From contig DASZRD010000005.1 in assembly GCA_035549255.1 (NCBI GenBank), positions 58-64,057 of the forward strand: 64,000 bases of DNA, given 5' to 3'. Shown piece by piece: positions 4,387 to 57,623 of this stretch. The notes under the pieces are model-generated. The model searched no databases. It had not been told where the DNA came from and was given only the letters and a program-made list of their open reading frames with translations. The translations under genes and the position numbers were made by a program. Numbering within the stretch: position 1 is the first letter of the stretch; every line of letters begins with the position of its first letter. This DNA is from Minisyncoccota bacterium (GTDB taxonomy: Bacteria > Patescibacteriota > Minisyncoccia > Phycocordibacterales > SBAW01).

Positions 4387-4950
4387 ATGGAGAGAAGCGA
4401 CGAAGAGCTCATAGCCGCTTATATCGCGGGCGAGGAAAGCGCGTTCGCGATCGTGGTCGAGCGGCATCTGAAGGGCGTGTACTCCTTCGCGCGGCGGTTC
4501 GCCGGCCGCGAGGAGGATACGGAGGATATCGTGCAGGACATCTTCCTCAAGGCGTGGAAGAGCATCCATCGCTACGACTCTGAGGCGAGCAGATTCAAGA
4601 CCTGGCTCATGCGCATCGCGCGCAATACGACGATCGACCACTTGCGCAAGAAAAAGTCGCTTCCGATGTCGTACTTCGACACCGAGGACGGCAACGTCCT
4701 GCTTGAAAATCTCGAAGACGCCTCTCCGCTCCCCGACGAGGCGTTCATGCGCGCACAGAGCGACGAGGCAGTCCGCCGGGCCCTCGAGGAGCTCAAGCCC
4801 GCGCAGCGCGAAGTGCTGCTCTTGCATTACATGAGCGGCCTCACGTTCGAGGAGATCGGCCTAGCACTAAAAAAGCCCCCCAATACCGTTAAAAGCATCC
4901 ACCGCCGGGCGCTTGTGGCTCTCCGTTCCCTCCTGCACCAAGAATCCTAA
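4387..4950 (+). CDS. RNA polymerase sigma-70 factor, ECF subfamily
   Basis: Sigma-70 region 2 (DIVQDIFLKAWKSIHRYD ... FKTWLMRIARNTTID) and region 4 (LTFEEIGLALKKPPNTVKSIHRRAL). Confidence 0.9.
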   Translation: MERSDEELIAAYIAGEESAFAIVVERHLKGVYSFARRFAGREEDTEDIVQDIFLKAWKSIHRYDSEASRFKTWLMRIARNTTIDHLRKKKSLPMSYFDTEDGNVLLENLEDASPLPDEAFMRAQSDEAVRRALEELKPAQREVLLLHYMSGLTFEEIGLALKKPPNTVKSIHRRALVALRSLLHQES

Positions 4951-4963
4951 CCCTACCGTATAT

Positions 4964-5344
4964 ATGCATATGCAAATTAGAGAATTAGACGCTCCACAGG
5001 GGCTTCTCGAAAAGACGCTTGCACGACTCTCTCTTGCCGCCCGTCGCCGCGCGCGGCTCTCATTCGCGCTCCACGGAGCCTTCGCGGCCGCATCCTTCTT
5101 GGCGCTTCTCCCAGCGCTGGCCTATGCCGGACAGCAGTTCGCCGCTTCCGGCTTCTCGTCCTATCTGTCGCTCATCTTCTCCGACAGTGGCGTGGCAGCG
5201 ACCTACTGGCGCGAACTTCTCCTGTCGCTCGCAGACTCGCTTCCCTCGCTCGCGCTTATTGCCGTATTAGTGCCCTTGTGCGTGTTTATTTGGGCGGTCA
5301 TCGCGATCCCGCGCAGTGCCCGTACGATGCTTCGATACGCGTAG
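4964..5344 (+). CDS. membrane protein, putative anti-sigma factor partner of the ECF sigma (start uncertain)
   Basis: Immediately downstream of the ECF sigma gene; two predicted TM helices; no HxxxCxxC zinc motif. The track start at 4913 is a TTG inside the sigma gene; ATG at 4964 is preferred. Confidence 0.45.
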   Translation: MHMQIRELDAPQGLLEKTLARLSLAARRRARLSFALHGAFAAASFLALLPALAYAGQQFAASGFSSYLSLIFSDSGVAATYWRELLLSLADSLPSLALIAVLVPLCVFIWAVIAIPRSARTMLRYA

Positions 5345-8388: not shown

Positions 8389-9628
8389 AGATACTTTGCA
8401 AGAAACATATACCGCCCTCTCGGCCAACAAAGTCCGCTCCGGGCTGACCGTTTTGGGCATCGTCATCGGCATCGGCTCGGTCATAGCCATGGTGTCGGTC
8501 GGCCAGGGCGCCGCGAGCGGCATCCAGTCGTCGATCCAATCGCTCGGCTCGAACCTCCTTCAAGTTTCCCCCGGCGCGCAGCGCATCGCGGGCGGATTCG
8601 GCGTCTCGCTCGGCCGAGGCTCGGCATCGACGCTGACCCAGGCCGACGCTGACGCTATCGGCGCCCAGGTTGCCGATATCAACGCCGTCGCGACCGAGGT
8701 ATCCGGCCGCCAGCAGGTAACCGCAAAGGGCACCAATACCAATACGAGCGTTGTGGGCGTCACGTCCGCATATCCGCAGATCCGCAACTTGCAGATGGAC
8801 CAGGGCGACTTTATCAGCGACACGCAAAATCAGAATATCTCCAAAGTCGCGGTGCTTGGGCCGACCGCTGCCAGCGACCTCTTTGGCACCGACGATAGCA
8901 CGGCTGACGGCTTGCCTGACGGCATTGTAGGCCAGACGATACGCATCAAGGGGATGGAATTCACCGTGATCGGCATTACGGCGGCCAAAGGCGGCAGCGG
9001 CTTCAGCAATCAGGACGACACCATATATATCCCGGCGGCTAGCGCGCAGCGCTATCTTACCGGCAACTCGGGCGTTACGACGATCGATATCCAGGCATCA
9101 AGCAACGGCGCGATGGCGCAGGTGCAGGACGATGTCACGAACCTCCTCCTCGAGCGCCATAATATTTCAGACCCGACCAAGGCGGATTTCAGCGTGCTCA
9201 ACCAGAACGACCTCCTCTCGACGGTCTCGAGCGTGTCGGCTACGCTCACCCTCCTCTTGGCCTCGATCGCGGGCATCTCGCTCGTCGTCGGCGGCATCGG
9301 CATCATGAACATGATGCTCACCACCGTTACCGAGCGCACGCGCGAGATCGGCCTGCGCAAGGCCATAGGCGCCAAGAAGGCCGATATCTCGCGGCAGTTC
9401 CTCGTCGAGGCGGTGGCGCTCACGGTCGCGGGCGGCGTGATCGGGATCGTGTTAGGAGTCGGCATCGCGGTGGGCGCCAATATGCTCGGGCTCCTCACGA
9501 CCAGTGTGTCGTGGAGCTCGGTCGTGCTCGCGTTCGGTGTATCGGCGGCCATAGGCATCGCGTTCGGGTACTACCCGGCGCGGCGTGCGGCTTCGCTCAA
9601 CCCGATTGAAGCGTTACGTTACGAGTAA
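8378..9628 (+). CDS. ABC transporter permease (MacB/FtsX family)
   Basis: Internal ATG (MTIKDTLQ...) overlaps the ATPase stop by 11 nt; MacB periplasmic domain then FtsX-type four-TM bundle. Confidence 0.9.
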   Translation: MTIKDTLQETYTALSANKVRSGLTVLGIVIGIGSVIAMVSVGQGAASGIQSSIQSLGSNLLQVSPGAQRIAGGFGVSLGRGSASTLTQADADAIGAQVADINAVATEVSGRQQVTAKGTNTNTSVVGVTSAYPQIRNLQMDQGDFISDTQNQNISKVAVLGPTAASDLFGTDDSTADGLPDGIVGQTIRIKGMEFTVIGITAAKGGSGFSNQDDTIYIPAASAQRYLTGNSGVTTIDIQASSNGAMAQVQDDVTNLLLERHNISDPTKADFSVLNQNDLLSTVSSVSATLTLLLASIAGISLVVGGIGIMNMMLTTVTERTREIGLRKAIGAKKADISRQFLVEAVALTVAGGVIGIVLGVGIAVGANMLGLLTTSVSWSSVVLAFGVSAAIGIAFGYYPARRAASLNPIEALRYE

Positions 9629-13392: not shown

Positions 13393-13429
13393 GCAAAAGA
13401 AGAAGGCCGGCGCGTAAAACGCGCCGGCC
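13393..13429 (-). terminator. intrinsic terminator for the minus-strand gene ending at 13435
   Basis: 10-bp GC stem GGCCGGCGCG/CGCGCCGGCC with loop TAAAA, followed on the minus strand by TTCTTCTTTTG. Confidence 0.5.
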
Positions 13430-13434
13430 TAGGC

Positions 13435-13803
13435 CTACAGTCCCCAATCTTCGAGCTCCTCCTTGTACATCGATTTCCGAATATCCTGAAGCTGCTCAAT
13501 AACCTTGGGGTCGGTAATGCGAATGAAGCGGTCGACAACCTTCCCCTGCCACTGCGCCTTCTCCCAGAACATATGGAGCGGTCGCAGGTCGAACATCTTG
13601 CCGTTCTTGTAGACGAAGGCGTCGTAGAGCGGCTTGTACACCTGCATGTTGGCGTCCTCCGGCCGGCAGTCGTCCTCGGTATGATGCCCGGCGCCGTAAA
13701 TATAGTAGGCGTAATTATTCACCGCCCCCATGGGGTCGTGCTTGTAGTGGTAGTAGTACCCTGCCTCGGGGGCCTGCAGAGCCGGCTTGTCTTCGTATGC
13801 CAT
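13435..13803 (-). CDS. DUF1653-like protein
   Basis: GYYYHYKHDP ... YAYYIYGAGHHTE resembles the DUF1653 Y-rich core; GGAGA RBS. Confidence 0.55.
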   Translation of the reverse strand: MAYEDKPALQAPEAGYYYHYKHDPMGAVNNYAYYIYGAGHHTEDDCRPEDANMQVYKPLYDAFVYKNGKMFDLRPLHMFWEKAQWQGKVVDRFIRITDPKVIEQLQDIRKSMYKEELEDWGL

Positions 13804-32644: not shown

Positions 32645-33170
32645 CGTCCAGATCGGCGACCCGGTCTTGCGGGCGGTCGCAAAACCCTTGAAGCTCAAGG
32701 ATATTTCCGCGCGCCCGACCAAGTCCCTGATCGCAAAGATGAAAAGAGCGCTTGCGAGCGAGGAGTACGGGGTAGCAATCGCCGCGCCGCAGGTGGGCGC
32801 CTCGCTGCGGCTTTTCGTCGTAGCCGGGAAAGTATTCAAAGAGGATGAAGACGCCAAAGACGAGCCGACGCCGTCCGACCGCGTCTATATCAACCCCGAG
32901 ATCACCCGCCGCTCCAAGAAGCAGGGCGAGATGGCTGAGGGCTGCCTTTCGGTGCGCGGGCAATACGGCACCGTCATGCGCCACGAGAAGGTGACGCTTA
33001 AAGCGCTCGACGAAGGCGGCAAACCGATCCTCCAGCACGCCTCGGGCCTGCTCGCGCATATCTTCCAGCATGAGACCGACCATCTCGACGGCATACTGTA
33101 TATAGACAAGGCTGCGCGGCTGACCGACGACAGCGAGCGAGCGCCGCTCAGGGAAGAGTCTCCCGCATAA
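32628..33170 (+). CDS. def: peptide deformylase
   Basis: GCLS and QHETDHLDG (HExxH) motifs. Confidence 0.95.
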   Translation: MSKDPIVQIGDPVLRAVAKPLKLKDISARPTKSLIAKMKRALASEEYGVAIAAPQVGASLRLFVVAGKVFKEDEDAKDEPTPSDRVYINPEITRRSKKQGEMAEGCLSVRGQYGTVMRHEKVTLKALDEGGKPILQHASGLLAHIFQHETDHLDGILYIDKAARLTDDSERAPLREESPA

Positions 33171-33177
33171 TCTCTAT

Positions 33178-34029
33178 ATGAGTAGCAAACCGCTCTTCGC
33201 ATTCTTCGGGACGCCGCGCTTCGCGGTTGTGGTACTCGACGCGCTCGAGGCGCACGGCCTCGTGCCGGCGCTTATCATTACAGCGCCGGACAAAGCGCGC
33301 GGGCGCGGCCAGCAGGTGTCGCCTTCGCCCGTCAAAGCATGGGCGCTTGAGCGCGGCATCGACACCATAACGCCCGCGACGCTCAAGGACGGCGCCCTTG
33401 CCGCCGAGCTCGGCAATACGCAATGGGAGGTTTTCGTCGTGGCGGCATATAACAAATTGATCCCCAAAACTATTCTCGATATCCCGCGCAAGGGTTCGCT
33501 CAATATCCATCCTTCCCTTCTGCCAAAGTTCCGCGGGCCGTCGCCGGCGCTCTCGGCCATACTTGCGGACGAGCGCGCGACCGGAGTGAGCGTCATGCAG
33601 ATGAATGAAGAGATGGACGCGGGGCCGGTTGTCGCGCAAGCGAGGGTAGAGCTTGAAGAAGACGCCTGGCCGCCCAAAGGGCAGATGTTCGAGGACCTGC
33701 TCGCAACTGAGGGCGGCAACCTCTTGGCCGAAATATTGCCCGACTGGCTCGCGAGCGAGATCGTGCCGGAAATACAAGATGCAAGCAAAGCGACTTTTAC
33801 GCGCAAATTCACCGACGAAGACGCGAAAATCGATTTGCAGGCTGACGCGCGGCAAAACTTGCTCAAGATCAGGGCATTCGATCACGGCCCGCGCGCCTAC
33901 TTCCTCGACGAGTCAGGCAAGCGCGTCATCATCACCGATGCCGAGGTACGAGATAACAAGCTAGAAATCTTAAAAGTCATCCCCGAGGGCAAAAAAGAGA
34001 TACCATATAAGGATTTCCCAGGCCGTTGA
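33178..34029 (+). CDS. fmt: methionyl-tRNA formyltransferase
   Basis: Formyltransferase N-domain (SLNIHPSLLPKFRGPSP) and C-domain; def-fmt operon. Confidence 0.95.
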   Translation: MSSKPLFAFFGTPRFAVVVLDALEAHGLVPALIITAPDKARGRGQQVSPSPVKAWALERGIDTITPATLKDGALAAELGNTQWEVFVVAAYNKLIPKTILDIPRKGSLNIHPSLLPKFRGPSPALSAILADERATGVSVMQMNEEMDAGPVVAQARVELEEDAWPPKGQMFEDLLATEGGNLLAEILPDWLASEIVPEIQDASKATFTRKFTDEDAKIDLQADARQNLLKIRAFDHGPRAYFLDESGKRVIITDAEVRDNKLEILKVIPEGKKEIPYKDFPGR

Positions 34030-34053
34030 CTTTATATAAAAGAGGAGTATAAT
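34026..34053 (+). promoter_or_regulatory. near-consensus sigma70 promoter TTGACT-16-TATAAT, overlapping the fmt stop codon
   Basis: TTGACT 34026..34031, TATAAT 34048..34053; predicted TSS about 34060. Confidence 0.6.
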
Positions 34054-34059
34054 TGCAAG

Positions 34060-34290
34060 TAGATACAGAGCTTCGCGCGACGGCAAGTGCGGCCTTGGCC
34101 CCACTCCCCGGCGCGAAGGAGGTGCGAGCAGACTATCGCGTCGCATCTTGGACGGTCCAGCCTCGAAAGAGGAATCTCCAAGGAGTAAATGGATCTTCCG
34201 AATGGCGCTCCTACCAAAGCGCCGACAAAGCCGGTTTCCGCAGCGCATCCTCCCAGGGATTGCAGCAGCGGAAACCGGCTTTTATTTTTA
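34060..34290 (+). ncRNA. candidate structured small RNA (about 230 nt) bounded by its own promoter and intrinsic terminator; identity unknown
   Basis: GC-rich with multiple hairpins including GNRA-capped stems (CGCC-GCAA-GGCG-like, CCUC-GAAA-GAGG). Long terminator hairpin AAAGCCGGTTTCCGC...GCGGAAACCGGCTTT plus TTTTATTTTTAT (34227..34289). Only a 34-aa ORF, which runs into the terminator. Confidence 0.4.
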
Positions 34291-34293
34291 TAG

Positions 34294-34653
34294 TCAGCCG
34301 CGGAAGCCGCGCAGGATATCTTTTATCTTCCCCGCACCGCGACGGATGAGGTGCATGCGCTTTTTCTTTTGCCGAGCGAGCTCGTGAAATAATTCACCTT
34401 CGACGAGGTCGATTGCCTCGTGGAGCGCATCGCCGCGCGCCTCCGCGCGCAATGGTTGCGCCAGCTTCGGCGAATGGAGCATTACTTCCGCGCGGTATTT
34501 CTTCTCTTGGCCGACCGAATACTCCACCTCGACGTCTGCGCGCGCCGAGTCCGCATCCCTCACGAGCTTATCGAGTCCGCTGAGCTTTCTTTCAACATAC
34601 AAGCGGATCTCGTCTGAGACTTCCAAGCCCGTGCCCTTGATGTTGTAGTTCAT
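34294..34653 (-). CDS. hpf: ribosome hibernation promoting factor (HPF/RaiA, short form)
   Basis: Sigma54-modulation-protein fold (IKGTGLEVSDEIRLYVERKL ... HEAIDLVEGEL). Confidence 0.9.
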   Translation of the reverse strand: MNYNIKGTGLEVSDEIRLYVERKLSGLDKLVRDADSARADVEVEYSVGQEKKYRAEVMLHSPKLAQPLRAEARGDALHEAIDLVEGELFHELARQKKKRMHLIRRGAGKIKDILRGFRG

Positions 34654-34711
34654 TGAAGATATCTACCGGTTAATGCCTGTAGTATACCGAATAACTATAG
34701 AGGATAGGAAT

Positions 34712-35377
34712 CTAGGGACTCGTCGTCCAGTCGCGCACTATGCTTGCGTCAAGAAGATTGGGCGCGGCCTGATCGACATAGCCCTCGGCGCCGATGAAAT
34801 CGCCGACGCGCAAGCCCTCAAGCGTGCCGCTTGTCGCGTACGGAGGTATCACGGTCGACGCGCCGGATATCTGGACAATCCACACGCCGCCCCAGGTATT
34901 GATCGTTACCGACGTCGGTCCGACGGTCGCGACGGTACCACGGATAAGCGCGCTACCGTCGGCCGCGATCTCGACGACCCTCGGCGCGGGCGTGGTACCC
35001 GCGGCCGGATAGAGCGCCGGCGCAATCATAGTGCTCGACGCAGCGGTGGAAGCATCAGAGGTTGCAGATGGATTAGAATTCGGAGAAGTAGAAGCGGAGA
35101 ATACGGCGGCTCCCGGCGCCGAAAGGGTGATGTAGGTCGGCGGGAAGAACGGGTTTGGCACGCCGGTACTGGTTGCCGTAAGGGTATACGTGCCGTCCGA
35201 GTTCTGTACCGAAGAGCTTGCCGACACCCAGACCGGTGCACTCGATAACGCGGAAGAGCTCGCAGCCGTAGTCGCGCCGTCCGCCAGCGCGACGCCGCCG
35301 ATTGCCAGGATGCCGCCGAGCGCCAAGAATGCGAAAGTAGTGAATATTAATCGCGTGTACTTGCCGACTTTCATCAT
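34712..35377 (-). CDS. hypothetical secreted protein, Ser/Thr/Ala-rich
   Basis: Start at MMKVGKYTRL; signal anchor, low-complexity S/T/A-rich region, C-terminal beta-rich domain. Confidence 0.6.
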   Translation of the reverse strand: MMKVGKYTRLIFTTFAFLALGGILAIGGVALADGATTAASSSALSSAPVWVSASSSVQNSDGTYTLTATSTGVPNPFFPPTYITLSAPGAAVFSASTSPNSNPSATSDASTAASSTMIAPALYPAAGTTPAPRVVEIAADGSALIRGTVATVGPTSVTINTWGGVWIVQISGASTVIPPYATSGTLEGLRVGDFIGAEGYVDQAAPNLLDASIVRDWTTSP

Positions 35378-35412
35378 AATAAAGACCTTACGCCGCAAGC
35401 GATGAACGCAGG

Positions 35413-36777
35413 GTGAATGAACCGTTGCATGCATGCTACGATTTATCCATGCTGCGCCCTGCTTCCTTTACTTTTGGCACCTATACTATTGACCCGGCTC
35501 GCTCGGCTATCAGCTTCACCTACCGCGTCGGGTTCGAGAGCGGCAGAGTGCGCACATACACCGACCGCCTTATATTCCCTGACGTTACGCCGGGGTTATG
35601 GGAGAAAGTGCCCAAGGCCGTGCTTGAACCGACGCTCCAGGCGCTGCTCCTCATGCTCGGCATCAACTATTGGTGCGTCTTTCGTACGAGCAACATATAT
35701 ATTGAAAGGTTTGCGCTTACGCGCGAGCAAGCGGAATTTTGGAACACGCTGTATCTCAATGGATTAGGAGAATTCTTCTTCGATATGAAGATCGATTTCG
35801 ATAACCTGATCGTATTTCCTTACGACGCATCTCTCAGCGCGCCCGAGCCGCGCGGGCTCGGGCGCGCTGCCGGGCAGCTAGGGCGCGCGCTCCTACTCAA
35901 TGGCGCAGGCAAAGATTCAATCCTCTCCGCCGAGATACTCAAGGCGGCATCTATTCCGTTCGATTTCTTTGTGTTCGCTCCAACTCCCGCACACAATCGC
36001 ATTGCTTCGCTCGTGGGCGCCAAGACGATAAGCGTTAACCGCCGTCGCGACCCGCGCCTCAATCTGATCGGCGCGCTCTGCAGGACGTCGAGCGCCTATC
36101 CATCCGTATCGACATTTACGTTTGTTGCCACATTACTTGCGGAATTACTCGGCTACGACTCGATCATCTTCTCCAACGAGCGCAGCGCCGACTTCGGCAA
36201 CCTTACTTATCTCGGCCTCTCGGTAAATCATCAGTGGTGCAAGTCGTCAGAGGCCGAGAAGCTTATCAACGACTACATTCGGCGATTCATAACTCCCGAT
36301 ATCTCGACCCGCTCGCTCTTGCGAAGCTACAGCGAGCTCGAAATCGTGCGGCGATTCGCGCACTACCCTCAGTACCTCAAGCAGGTCACCAGTTGCAACG
36401 CGTATTTCTGGCTCTCGCGCCCCGAGCAGCTCTTCCTGTCGCGCAAGAGAGCCTATTGGTGCAAGACATGCCCCAAATGCGTATTCCTCTTCGCCTGCTT
36501 CGCGGCATACCTCCCGAAAAAAGAAGTGGTCGAGATGTTTGGCGCCGATCTCTACCAGCGCAAACGCCTCTTGCCGCTCACGCGGCGCATCCTCGGGTTA
36601 GAAGGCTTCAAACCGCTTGATTGCGTCGGCGAACCCGAAGAAATGATCCTTGCCATGCACTATGCGGTGCGCGGCAAAGAGTATGCCGGCGAGCCGGCGA
36701 TGAACATGTTCGAACAGAGCTTCCCCGTAGACTACAATTTCAAAGAAATCGAGCGAAAAGTACTTTCAAATATATAA
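35413..36777 (+). CDS. PP-loop-like adenine-nucleotide alpha-hydrolase superfamily protein with a C-terminal CxxCxxC motif; function unknown
   Basis: LLLNGAGKDS resembles the SGGxDS PP-loop; WCKTCPKC zinc-ribbon-like motif; about 150-aa N-domain with no recognisable family. GTG start at 35413 per the track; ATG at 35452 is an alternative. Confidence 0.7.
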   Translation: MNEPLHACYDLSMLRPASFTFGTYTIDPARSAISFTYRVGFESGRVRTYTDRLIFPDVTPGLWEKVPKAVLEPTLQALLLMLGINYWCVFRTSNIYIERFALTREQAEFWNTLYLNGLGEFFFDMKIDFDNLIVFPYDASLSAPEPRGLGRAAGQLGRALLLNGAGKDSILSAEILKAASIPFDFFVFAPTPAHNRIASLVGAKTISVNRRRDPRLNLIGALCRTSSAYPSVSTFTFVATLLAELLGYDSIIFSNERSADFGNLTYLGLSVNHQWCKSSEAEKLINDYIRRFITPDISTRSLLRSYSELEIVRRFAHYPQYLKQVTSCNAYFWLSRPEQLFLSRKRAYWCKTCPKCVFLFACFAAYLPKKEVVEMFGADLYQRKRLLPLTRRILGLEGFKPLDCVGEPEEMILAMHYAVRGKEYAGEPAMNMFEQSFPVDYNFKEIERKVLSNI

Positions 36778-37036: not shown

Positions 37037-37292
37037 CTCCGCGGGTAGGACTCGAACCTACAACCAACTCCTTACACATATCCTCTTATTACTAAAAGGT
37101 GTGGACTATATCATCTTCCCAAAGGAAGTTTCGGTATCTAGTCTCTACGGCGCCCTCGCACCATGCGAGGTTCCCACGGTGTTGCCCTCTTTAAAAGTAG
37201 GGGTTCACCGTTATCCCGAAATTATTCAATCCGCCTTGCGGCGAAAGGCTGCCTGTCGACAGGGAGCTGCTCTACCATTGAGCTACCGCGGA
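37037..37292 (-). tRNA. tRNA-Asn (anticodon GUU) interrupted by a group I intron in the anticodon loop
   Basis: Exon 1 (37292..37259): acceptor TCCGCGG, D-arm GCTC-AATGGTA-GAGC, anticodon stem GCTCC, loop CUGU. Exon 2 (37074..37037): UAA, GGAGU, variable loop, T-arm GTAGG-TTCGAGT-CCTAC, acceptor CCGCGGA, discriminator G. The spliced loop CUGUUAA matches tRNA-Asn; U1-A72 and G73 also fit Asn. Confidence 0.75.
37075..37258 (-). mobile_element. group I self-splicing intron (184 nt, Azoarcus-like subgroup IC3) within tRNA-Asn
   Basis: Conserved core: P7 strands GUAGAGACUAGAU (R, identical over 12 nt to the Azoarcus pre-tRNA-Ile intron) and AAGAUGAUAUAGUCC (S); P3/P4-like AAUUUCGGGAUAACGG; P2 hairpin CGCC-GCAA-GGCG. 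The 5' exon ends in U, which pairs with a G of the internal guide GCAG; the intron ends in G. Confidence 0.75.
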
Positions 37293-37309
37293 ATGTGACG
37301 AACGTAAAA

Positions 37310-57245: not shown

Positions 57246-57325
57246 ATAAAAAAGAACAAGGTCGAGGCGGGCCCAAAACCCTGGGAAACCAGCCATAAGC
57301 TGGAGCTTTTGGGCCCACCTCGACC
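57246..57325 (-). promoter_or_regulatory. intrinsic-terminator-like hairpin inside the 5' leader of the synthase gene (candidate attenuator/riboswitch expression platform)
   Basis: 19-bp inverted repeat GGTCGAGGCGGGCCCAAAA / TTTTGGGCCCACCTCGACC (one mismatch) at 57260..57278 and 57307..57325, followed on the minus strand by TTGTTCTTTTTTAT. Lies about 165 nt upstream of the synthase ATG and is preceded by a second hairpin plus U-run (57359..57390). Confidence 0.45.
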
Positions 57326-57623
57326 TCGTATCTTTTGGAAGAACGCCTTCCCGTAAAAACAAATCGAAGCTCTTCTTCGGAGTAAAGAGCTTCGCCGCGC
57401 ATACTACTCGAGGCAGATTTCTTGTATAGATTGTCAGCGCAAAATTTTCGTCGCCGAATGTCGCGTGAGAGTTGCGAAAATAAAAATTTGTATCGCGCTA
57501 TCGCACGTCTCTTGTAATTTGAAATGCGCGTGCTATTTTGCCTCCTACCAAAGCAGCTCTGGGAAACTGCCGTGGGACGTGTTTTTCTCTTGTCCTTTAT
57601 TCATTAGGTATTAACCAGAGCTT

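Follow-up and report, generated by a model that had tools for sequence, protein, structure and literature searches.

The window described here is a stretch of 64,000 nucleotides (nt) of a Minisyncoccota bacterium (assembly GCA_035549255.1, contig DASZRD010000005.1), and its segment between the genes fmt and hpf is a candidate gene for a small structured RNA. By the names of the nearest relatives of its Fmt protein, the organism is Adlerbacteria-like and belongs to Candidatus Paceibacterota (Patescibacteria, the Candidate Phyla Radiation). The gene order at the locus is def (PF01327), fmt (PF00551), the candidate RNA and hpf (PF02482), the last on the opposite strand. Upstream, fmt encodes methionyl-tRNA formyltransferase on the plus strand (33178..34029; PF00551, 6e-34; 100% identical to the Fmt protein of a metagenome-assembled genome at NCBI), and the convergent flank on the minus strand (34294..34653; PF02482, 1.6e-13) encodes a ribosome hibernation factor of the hpf/raiA family, whose stop codon reads TCA on the plus strand (34294-34296). 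In the table of open reading frames (ORFs) no gene follows the RNA on its own strand, and the next gene is hpf. An earlier note, made from the letters of the sequence, had named these two genes as the neighbours, in agreement with Pfam, and had claimed between them a small structured non-coding RNA (ncRNA) with its own promoter and intrinsic terminator. This claim is supported by the conservation of promoter and terminator in nine orthologous units of promoter, RNA and terminator, each hereafter called a cassette, as well as by compensatory changes, by the strand that folds, by the lack of a conserved ORF and by the lack of any Rfam or ARAGORN match.

About 165 loci of relatives were collected by searching the species genomes of GTDB and the metagenomes of JGI with Fmt as anchor and by 12 contig look-ups with exact proteins. 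The convergent fmt/hpf pair is widely conserved among them, and the cassette is present in nine distinct genomes, all with an Fmt at least 70% identical to that of the window and with 252-374 nt between the stop codons of fmt and hpf; the 12 look-ups, which were based on Fmt, added four cassettes to the set and eight junctions that lack it. The order within the cassette is constant: a -35 element TTGAC over the fmt stop, a -10 element (G)AGTAnnnT, a 5' tail AGAU-N(1-2)-GAGCUU, a highly structured body (z-scores of the fold from -4 to -8) and a terminator whose U-tract abuts hpf. By their bodies the cassettes fall into four types, namely type A (the window and L012), type B (L001 and L003), type C (L002 (= L074), L069 and L155) and type D (L154 and L157 (= L158, L159)), the tail motif just given being found in A, C and D and a similar one in B. 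About 45 fetched loci, some of them duplicates, have fmt and hpf stops that overlap or lie at most 89 nt apart and carry no cassette. When all nine RNAs were compared by nhmmer with about 970 kb of related flanks and with the 64-kb window, they matched in the fmt/hpf slot alone, and a regular expression for promoter plus tail matched, besides the cassettes, a single ordinary promoter, that of a radical-SAM gene in L024. In viral contigs, two pattern scans met with a single 16-mer by chance and with 15-mers that are non-specific, and an nhmmer search gave nothing.

The promoter claimed in the earlier note, TTGACT-16-TATAAT overlapping the fmt stop, was borne out. The -35 hexamer TTGACT (34026..34031, plus strand) overlaps the stop codon TGA (34027-34029), the -10 hexamer TATAAT (34048..34053, plus strand) is preceded by a conserved GAG, and together they match 11 of 12 consensus positions, the sole match of a promoter scan within 33500-35000. 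Because shuffled sequences yield 0.9 matches at the scan threshold of at least 9 of 12, this match is weak by itself, and the call is supported since the -35 over the fmt stop and the (G)AGTAnnnT motif are kept in 9/9 orthologous cassettes. Transcription would begin at 34060-34062, 7-9 nt past the -10 hexamer, and the 3' end would fall within the U-tract, giving a predicted transcript of about 232 nt (34060..34291, plus strand; fold z -6.6) with both ends placed by such reasoning; its homologue in L012 lies at 4881-5104. At the predicted start stands a single-stranded tail, UAGAUACAGAG (34060..34070, plus strand), which is unpaired in a constrained fold and identical at 7 of 11 positions in L012. 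Its consensus, AGAU-N(1-2)-GAG followed by the CUU of the first helix, is kept in types A, C and D, and the tails of type B (UAGGUAAGAAC and UAGAUUGAGGGC) are similar to it.

The segment 34060-34292 (233 nt) has a minimum free energy (MFE) of -110.2 kcal/mol, as against -78.4±4.8 kcal/mol for dinucleotide shuffles (z -6.6; 0/200 shuffles as good), and it ranks third by fold z among 276 tiles of 232 nt across the window, the two tiles above it holding an unrelated hairpin each. The reverse complement also folds well (z -5.2), so that comparative data were needed for strandedness. Folded independently, the RNAs of the window and of L012 adopt the same architecture of five domains, that is, four domains P1 to P4 and the terminator hairpin, all given here on the plus strand. 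P1 (34071..34118) is a hairpin with a CUU/AAG closing, which is common to types C and D, and its internal loop is rich in C; the inner helix reads AGUG/CACU in the window and GACA/UGUC in L012, which amounts to four consecutive double compensatory changes. P2 (34119..34149), a hairpin with the 5' strand (G)GAGGUGCGAGC, has a helix that is invariant between the window and L012, the loop alone being different. A Shine-Dalgarno (SD)-like AAGGAGGUG crosses the boundary between P1 and P2 and is carried by the 5' strand of P2; the SD-like AAGGAGG at this place is kept in types A, C and D, is mostly paired and has no start codon at a usable distance. An idea that the RNA might be a sponge for the anti-SD sequence was dropped, AAGGAGG occurring in 20 copies in the window and the motif being largely base-paired.

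P3 (34150..34199) is a three-way junction with a GGA...UCC closing and is the best-conserved part of the RNA: 45 of its 50 positions are identical in L012, its helices never vary, and the junction is the same in the separate folds of the two sequences. It contains the sub-hairpins CCUC-GAAA-GAGG (34161-34172) and CUC-CAAG-GAG (34176-34185). Of the two GNRA tetraloops proposed earlier, the former is real and identical in L012, whereas the one described as resembling CGCC-GCAA-GGCG is not supported, its bases lying in the P1 stem and in an internal loop of the model. P4 (34204..34223) is a small hairpin, GGCGCU-loop-AGCGCC, with the junction GAAU before it and GACAAA after it, and a homologous hairpin with a UCC-NAAU junction is also present in type C.

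The long terminator hairpin that had been predicted some 230 nt past the promoter likewise stands, with its stability, its U-tract and covariation in its stem. It occupies 50 nt (34230..34279, plus strand; -38.2 kcal/mol, z -8.0), has an A-tract on its 5' side (34226-34229) and is followed by UUUUAUUUUU, with 9 U in 10, within the U-tract UUUUAUUUUUAU (34280..34291, plus strand), after which comes the hpf stop; the terminator thus lies 4 nt short of this convergent stop codon. When seven sequences from types A, C and D are compared, double changes affect 6 of the 16 consensus pairs of the stem. A scan for consensus terminators found none and missed this hairpin, probably because its stem is long and interrupted. 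The symmetry of the A-tract and the U-tract around the hairpin suggests that it probably also ends hpf transcription and is used in both directions. The situation then resembles the bidirectional intrinsic terminators known between convergent genes, which share with it a hairpin between an A-tract and a U-tract, two convergent units and a covarying stem; however, only about 60 of the 232 nt are terminator here, and the other 170 nt or so have a promoter of their own and selected structure and sequence.

Selection on the structure is seen in two independent sub-alignments of related intergenic regions, those of types A and C, a check that the earlier note had proposed and that gave compensatory changes in both. 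The RNAs of the type A pair, the window and L012, are 74% identical when gaps are counted and 79.6% identical in a BLAST alignment, while the same pair has 68% nt identity in fmt and 61% in hpf, and only 43.5% at the third codon positions of fmt. In this alignment 94.5% of the pair cells are standard pairs, and seven pairs are doubly compensated, as against 3.6±1.3 in shuffles, of which 3/500 reach seven (a control and not a probability), and 0-1 in slid controls. The four consecutive changes in P1 are among the seven, and two others lie in the terminator. The apparently broken cells of P4 are mostly a mis-registration of the alignment, because L012 folds its own P4 of 9 base pairs. In type C, with three sequences, 95.9% of the cells are paired, and 19 pairs show double changes, distributed over P1, P2, P3 and the terminator, as against 7.8±2.0 in shuffles (0/500) and 1-4 in slid controls. 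The helices of P2 and P3 are invariant in sequence in type A, which points to a constraint beyond pairing.

The same alignments tell the strand. In type A the ratio of G-U to A-C cells is 11:1, and in type C it is 38:3; this large excess of G-U identifies the plus strand, that of fmt, as the one that folds. A transcript of the minus strand, which would be the 3' untranslated region (UTR) of hpf, was ruled out by these ratios, by its weaker z and by the lack of a terminator at its far end. As to coding, the earlier note had seen no convincing ORF apart from a frame of 34 amino acids (aa) preceded by a ribosome-binding site. This frame does exist (34189-34293), with 3 nt between AAGGAG and its ATG, and it runs into the terminator, but it is not conserved: its counterpart in L012 has six codons in common and is then shifted by an indel of 1 nt, and no equivalent ORF exists in types B, C and D. 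The peptides of the two frames are not hydrophobic (grand average of hydropathy, GRAVY, -0.42 and 0.12). A frame of 98 aa that spans the region is broken in L012 by indels of 2, 5 and 1 nt, and between the types the indels have lengths not divisible by three. With its frames so broken the segment has no conserved ORF, and coding readings of it were rejected on these indels and on the lack of an ORF common to the types.

Between the types, sequence similarity is weak (A against C in the 3' module, E about 1e-3) or undetectable. All four types nevertheless have in common the promoter, the 5' tail and the triplets that close the helices, and three of them also the terminator. Types A and C have the whole architecture in common: a tail ending in GAG, P1 with CUU/AAG, P2 with GAG/CUY and P3 with GGA/UCC, and then, in the 3' part, a junction NAAU, P4, a junction GA(A/C)AA and a terminator starting with (A/G)GCCGGU. 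Type D retains the tail, P1, one GAG/CUC domain and a terminator like that of A and C, and type B, which is more divergent and ends in another terminator, resembles the rest in its promoter, in a similar 5' tail and in a few motifs like those of P3. The type of RNA is at odds with the phylogeny of the flanking genes. L001, the nearest relative of the window (80% nt identity in fmt and 74% in hpf), has a near-identical promoter and U-tract, but its body is of type B and unalignable with that of the window (42%), whereas L012, which is far more distant, carries type A like the window. Moreover, the type B body of L003 has a 22-nt block in common with L001 although its flanks are closest to the type C clade, and the closest Fmt relatives of L012 (81-82%) have no cassette between fmt and hpf. 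This pattern would fit if bodies had been replaced laterally while the ends were conserved, or if an ancestor had carried two bodies in tandem, of which the lineages later lost one or the other. A tentative extension, to which a rather low probability is given, is that the fmt/hpf slot is a fast-diversifying RNA locus with a fixed promoter and tail and with a terminator kept in three of four types, in which the body is swapped or remodelled by lineage and each structure is selected. If this were true, it would be a previously unrecognised RNA class of Patescibacteria, and its specificity would co-evolve with that of some variable partner, for instance a protein peculiar to the lineage or a factor connected with a host or a phage; another possibility is that the locus would show the de novo birth of a structured RNA gene out of a bidirectional terminator.

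In most relatives the fmt/hpf gap ranges from an overlap of 44 nt to a spacer of 89 nt, and it is an insertion hot spot (L011, L013, L016, L163, L005 and the P0122 contig), some gaps holding a tRNA-Asn gene, an ORF of 613 aa or an ORF of 347 aa instead of the cassette. The spacer of 89 nt in L071 (3377-3465, = L072) has short matches to type A (GTAG..GAGC and CGACGGCGCGAA), and the C-terminal extension of its Fmt (..NGAKEG) is encoded by sequence matching the promoter spacer in the window. These weak resemblances hint that this spacer is either what is left of a cassette or a precursor of one.

With cmscan and Rfam 15, no meaningful family match was found in 33000-35500 at E<=10, with raiA, 6S, signal recognition particle (SRP) RNA, RNase P RNA and tmRNA included; the whole window at Rfam gathering thresholds gave only tRNA-Glu and a group I intron; and the loci of the eight relatives with cassettes gave no Rfam match to the RNA at E<=1. 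Furthermore, 20 related loci searched by cmscan held nothing matching the RNA, all runs giving junk, tRNAs, group I introns and one LOOT RNA elsewhere, and ARAGORN called no tmRNA or tRNA in the region. The earlier failure to recognise SRP RNA, RNase P RNA, tmRNA or 6S RNA by eye is therefore confirmed by Rfam and ARAGORN, in the window and in the relatives. For 6S RNA, besides the missing Rfam hit, both the MFE fold and the centroid fold consist of local hairpins in a row, with no stem closing the 5' and 3' ends and no central bubble, and the ends pair solely through a spurious contact between the tail and the U-tract. A riboswitch or leader is contradicted by hpf lying on the opposite strand, by an interior that is unalignable between types and by the lack of a riboswitch hit in Rfam, and an mRNA of a type I toxin-antitoxin system by ORFs that diverge after six codons, by their GRAVY values and by their absence from types B-D.

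Among known ncRNAs the raiA motif RNA comes closest; it is abundant, stands alone and is commonly found beside raiA/hpf (PMC10861870). It occurs in Bacillota and Actinomycetota, in more than 2,000 species, and has six covarying stems (P1-P6), two pseudoknots and 51 near-invariant nucleotides (PMC10861870, PMC12968392), and 66% of its members lie upstream of raiA/hpf on the same strand (PMC10861870, PMC12968392). Like it, the candidate is a stand-alone, highly structured RNA, about 200 nt long, that has a promoter and a terminator to itself, adjoins a gene of the raiA/hpf family and is probably not a cis-regulator. However, the raiA covariance model matched neither 33000-35500 at E<=10 nor the eight related loci at E<=1, the present RNA changes almost wholly between close relatives, and nothing in it matches the 51 near-invariant positions. 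In addition, it lies downstream of hpf and convergent with it, unlike the upstream same-strand position in raiA, and its organism, Adlerbacteria-like and of Paceibacterota, belongs to another phylum (Patescibacteria). Regulatory or sequestering RNAs of several hairpins, such as RNAIII of S. aureus, CsrB/RsmZ and 6S/Ms1, are more general likenesses in being independent genes that have a strong promoter, stable hairpins in a row and Rho-independent termination, non-coding and, as the candidate probably would be, abundant, but the candidate has no repeated GGA loops like CsrB, no rod with a central bubble like 6S and no conserved C-rich loops like RNAIII and the Rsa RNAs. Searches of the literature gave nothing on lineage-specific small RNAs (sRNAs) of Patescibacteria, the raiA papers being the sole analogue.

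By its architecture, as read from the sequence, the candidate is a generic intrinsic-terminated sRNA gene outside every described family: it has a predicted sigma-70 promoter of its own (11/12 positions, 9/9 cassettes), a Rho-independent terminator at the 3' end (the -38.2 kcal/mol hairpin with UUUUAUUUUU, covarying in seven sequences) and no conserved ORF. The favoured reading, given a probability of about 0.6, is that the segment is a stand-alone gene for a non-coding, highly structured sRNA of about 230 nt, of an undescribed family limited to a sub-clade of Adlerbacteria-like Paceibacterota, which would act in trans as a folded RNA binding a partner. On this reading, transcription would start near 34060-34062 from the near-consensus promoter whose -35 lies over the fmt stop, and the RNA would fold co-transcriptionally, giving a short 5' tail and then P1, P2, P3 with its three-way junction, and P4 as hairpin domains that abut one another. 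It would be released at the very strong intrinsic terminator 4 nt before the convergent hpf stop, the same terminator probably ending hpf transcription too. The invariant and mostly double-stranded P2-P3 would then be the surface that binds the partner, most likely a protein, so that the RNA would sequester it or serve as a scaffold. A trans-acting folded RNA is judged likelier than an mRNA, a riboswitch or an antisense RNA.

Several points weigh against this reading. The cassette is absent from the slot in about 45 related loci, including the nearest relatives of L012, so it is dispensable or relocatable, and no partner gene that co-occurs with the cassette is visible in the flanks. The interior differs between types, which argues against one protein- or ligand-binding site throughout the family, and the invariant helices of P2 and P3 give no covariation evidence for or against pairing. 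Since the nine distinct sequences fall into four poorly alignable types, the covariation tests rest on 2-3 sequences each and are supportive, not conclusive. Finally, the start, the 3' end and the abundance of the RNA are all deduced rather than observed.

Among the other explanations, an unlikely one is that of a base-pairing sRNA, in which the unpaired tail (AGAU-NN-GAGCUU) is the seed for mRNAs elsewhere and the hairpins and the terminator serve stability only. Bacterial sRNAs typically have a conserved seed and a fast-evolving body, and the tail is indeed, outside the promoter and terminator, the sole motif kept across types (A, C and D, B being similar) and is unpaired in the constrained fold. 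However, it has no conserved complementarity to the initiation region of hpf, with duplex energies equal to those of shuffled tails in the nine genomes, and conservation within type A peaks in the double-stranded P2-P3 and not in the tail (7/11), which may instead be part of the initial transcribed region or of the promoter context; the roughly 200 nt of selected, compensating structure also far exceed what a seed sRNA needs. Quite unlikely is a device acting on hpf in cis, by antisense RNA or transcriptional interference, where a strong convergent promoter would fire in the direction of hpf and regulated read-through of the terminator would produce antisense RNA or collisions of polymerases in a way resembling riboswitch-controlled antisense RNAs. 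The position is suggestive, 9/9 cassettes being convergent with hpf, ending right before its stop (4 nt in the window) and filling the spacer of 252-374 nt, and the terminator hairpin is common to the hpf 3' end; but with -38 kcal/mol and 9 U in 10 that terminator is of extreme strength, inspection of the alignments revealed no conserved antiterminator pairing, and the interior, where a sensor would be, varies between types, unlike riboswitch aptamers. The RNA does not overlap the coding sequence of hpf and most relatives have hpf without the cassette, so the suggestion in the earlier note of a cis-antisense regulator of hpf is not supported: as the RNA ends before the hpf stop at a very strong terminator, only the shared hairpin could overlap the hpf transcript.

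It is very unlikely that the segment has no function of its own and is an overgrown spacer with a bidirectional terminator at an insertion-prone junction, or the 3' UTR of fmt; on that view, whether it is transcribed or not, its hairpins would be retained solely to terminate or insulate the convergent transcripts of fmt and hpf. The junction is highly plastic, with overlaps, spacers of 0-89 nt, tRNA-Asn and whole ORFs, the 89-nt spacer of L071 has its short type A matches, and the turnover of the body is fast between close relatives; on the other hand, compensatory changes occur far from the terminator, in P1 and, for type C, in P1-P3, the type A RNA is 74-80% identical as against 43.5% at fmt third positions, and the near-consensus promoter kept in 9/9 cassettes would be needless for a 3' UTR. 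A very divergent member of a known family (raiA motif, 6S, Ms1, SRP, RNase P, tmRNA or a riboswitch) missed by the covariance models is highly improbable. Rfam models are mostly trained on other phyla and raiA RNAs commonly adjoin raiA/hpf (PMC10861870), but neither Rfam 15 nor ARAGORN gave a match, the closing stem and bubble of 6S are missing, and genomes with 80% identity in fmt have RNAs that cannot be aligned with each other, which is compatible neither with a housekeeping RNA nor with the 51 near-invariant positions of raiA. That the segment is the structured mRNA of some small protein, such as a peptide like the type I toxins, with its SD sequestered in helices, is hardly credible: the SD-like AAGGAGGUG and AAGGAG are present, the latter followed by the ATG of the 34-aa frame, and the patchy distribution is like that of toxin-antitoxin loci, yet the SD-ATG spacing is 3 nt, the peptides are non-hydrophobic, types B-D have no ORF, and the frame-breaking indels effectively refute it.

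Patescibacteria have tiny genomes with very little non-coding DNA, and an RNA that is driven by a promoter, selected for structure and retained in such a genome likely does something. If the favoured reading of a stand-alone, trans-acting sRNA gene is right, the RNA would be one of few candidate lineage-specific ncRNAs in the Candidate Phyla Radiation, and its family would offer a compact natural experiment in the gain, remodelling and loss of a structured RNA gene at one chromosomal site. Because the raiA RNA is also an orphan ncRNA beside the gene of a hibernation factor, a link with hibernation is a testable idea. At present the RNA is an orphan candidate sRNA with nine known copies and of specialist interest.

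Some further observations were made at the locus and elsewhere. In the translation-initiation regions of hpf (34654-34700 on the minus strand of the window, and the equivalents in eight related loci), a Shine-Dalgarno sequence is not recognisable in 9/9 cassette genomes. On the minus strand of the window at about 37045-37293, a tRNA-Asn(GUU) is split in the anticodon loop by a group I intron (RF00028, 50.1 bits, 37082-37272); its exons are readable on either side of the intron and ARAGORN does not call it, and the same split tRNA-Asn lies directly 3' of fmt in L016 (86.8 bits). A LOOT RNA (RF03000, 63.9 bits, cut off at the end of the locus) is found on the plus strand of L008 at 8764-8870, about 4 kb downstream of fmt. 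The window contains in addition a long imperfect hairpin on the plus strand (AAGGTCGAGGCGGGCCCAAAA...TTTTGGGCCCACCTCGACCT, 57255-57330; tile z about -7.4) followed by a short T-run, which could be another terminator or a small RNA, and a GC-rich hairpin, GAAGGCCGGCGCG-TAAAA-CGCGCCGGCC (13403-13440), which lies in the tile with the strongest fold z of the window (-10) and looks like a plain terminator between two coding regions.

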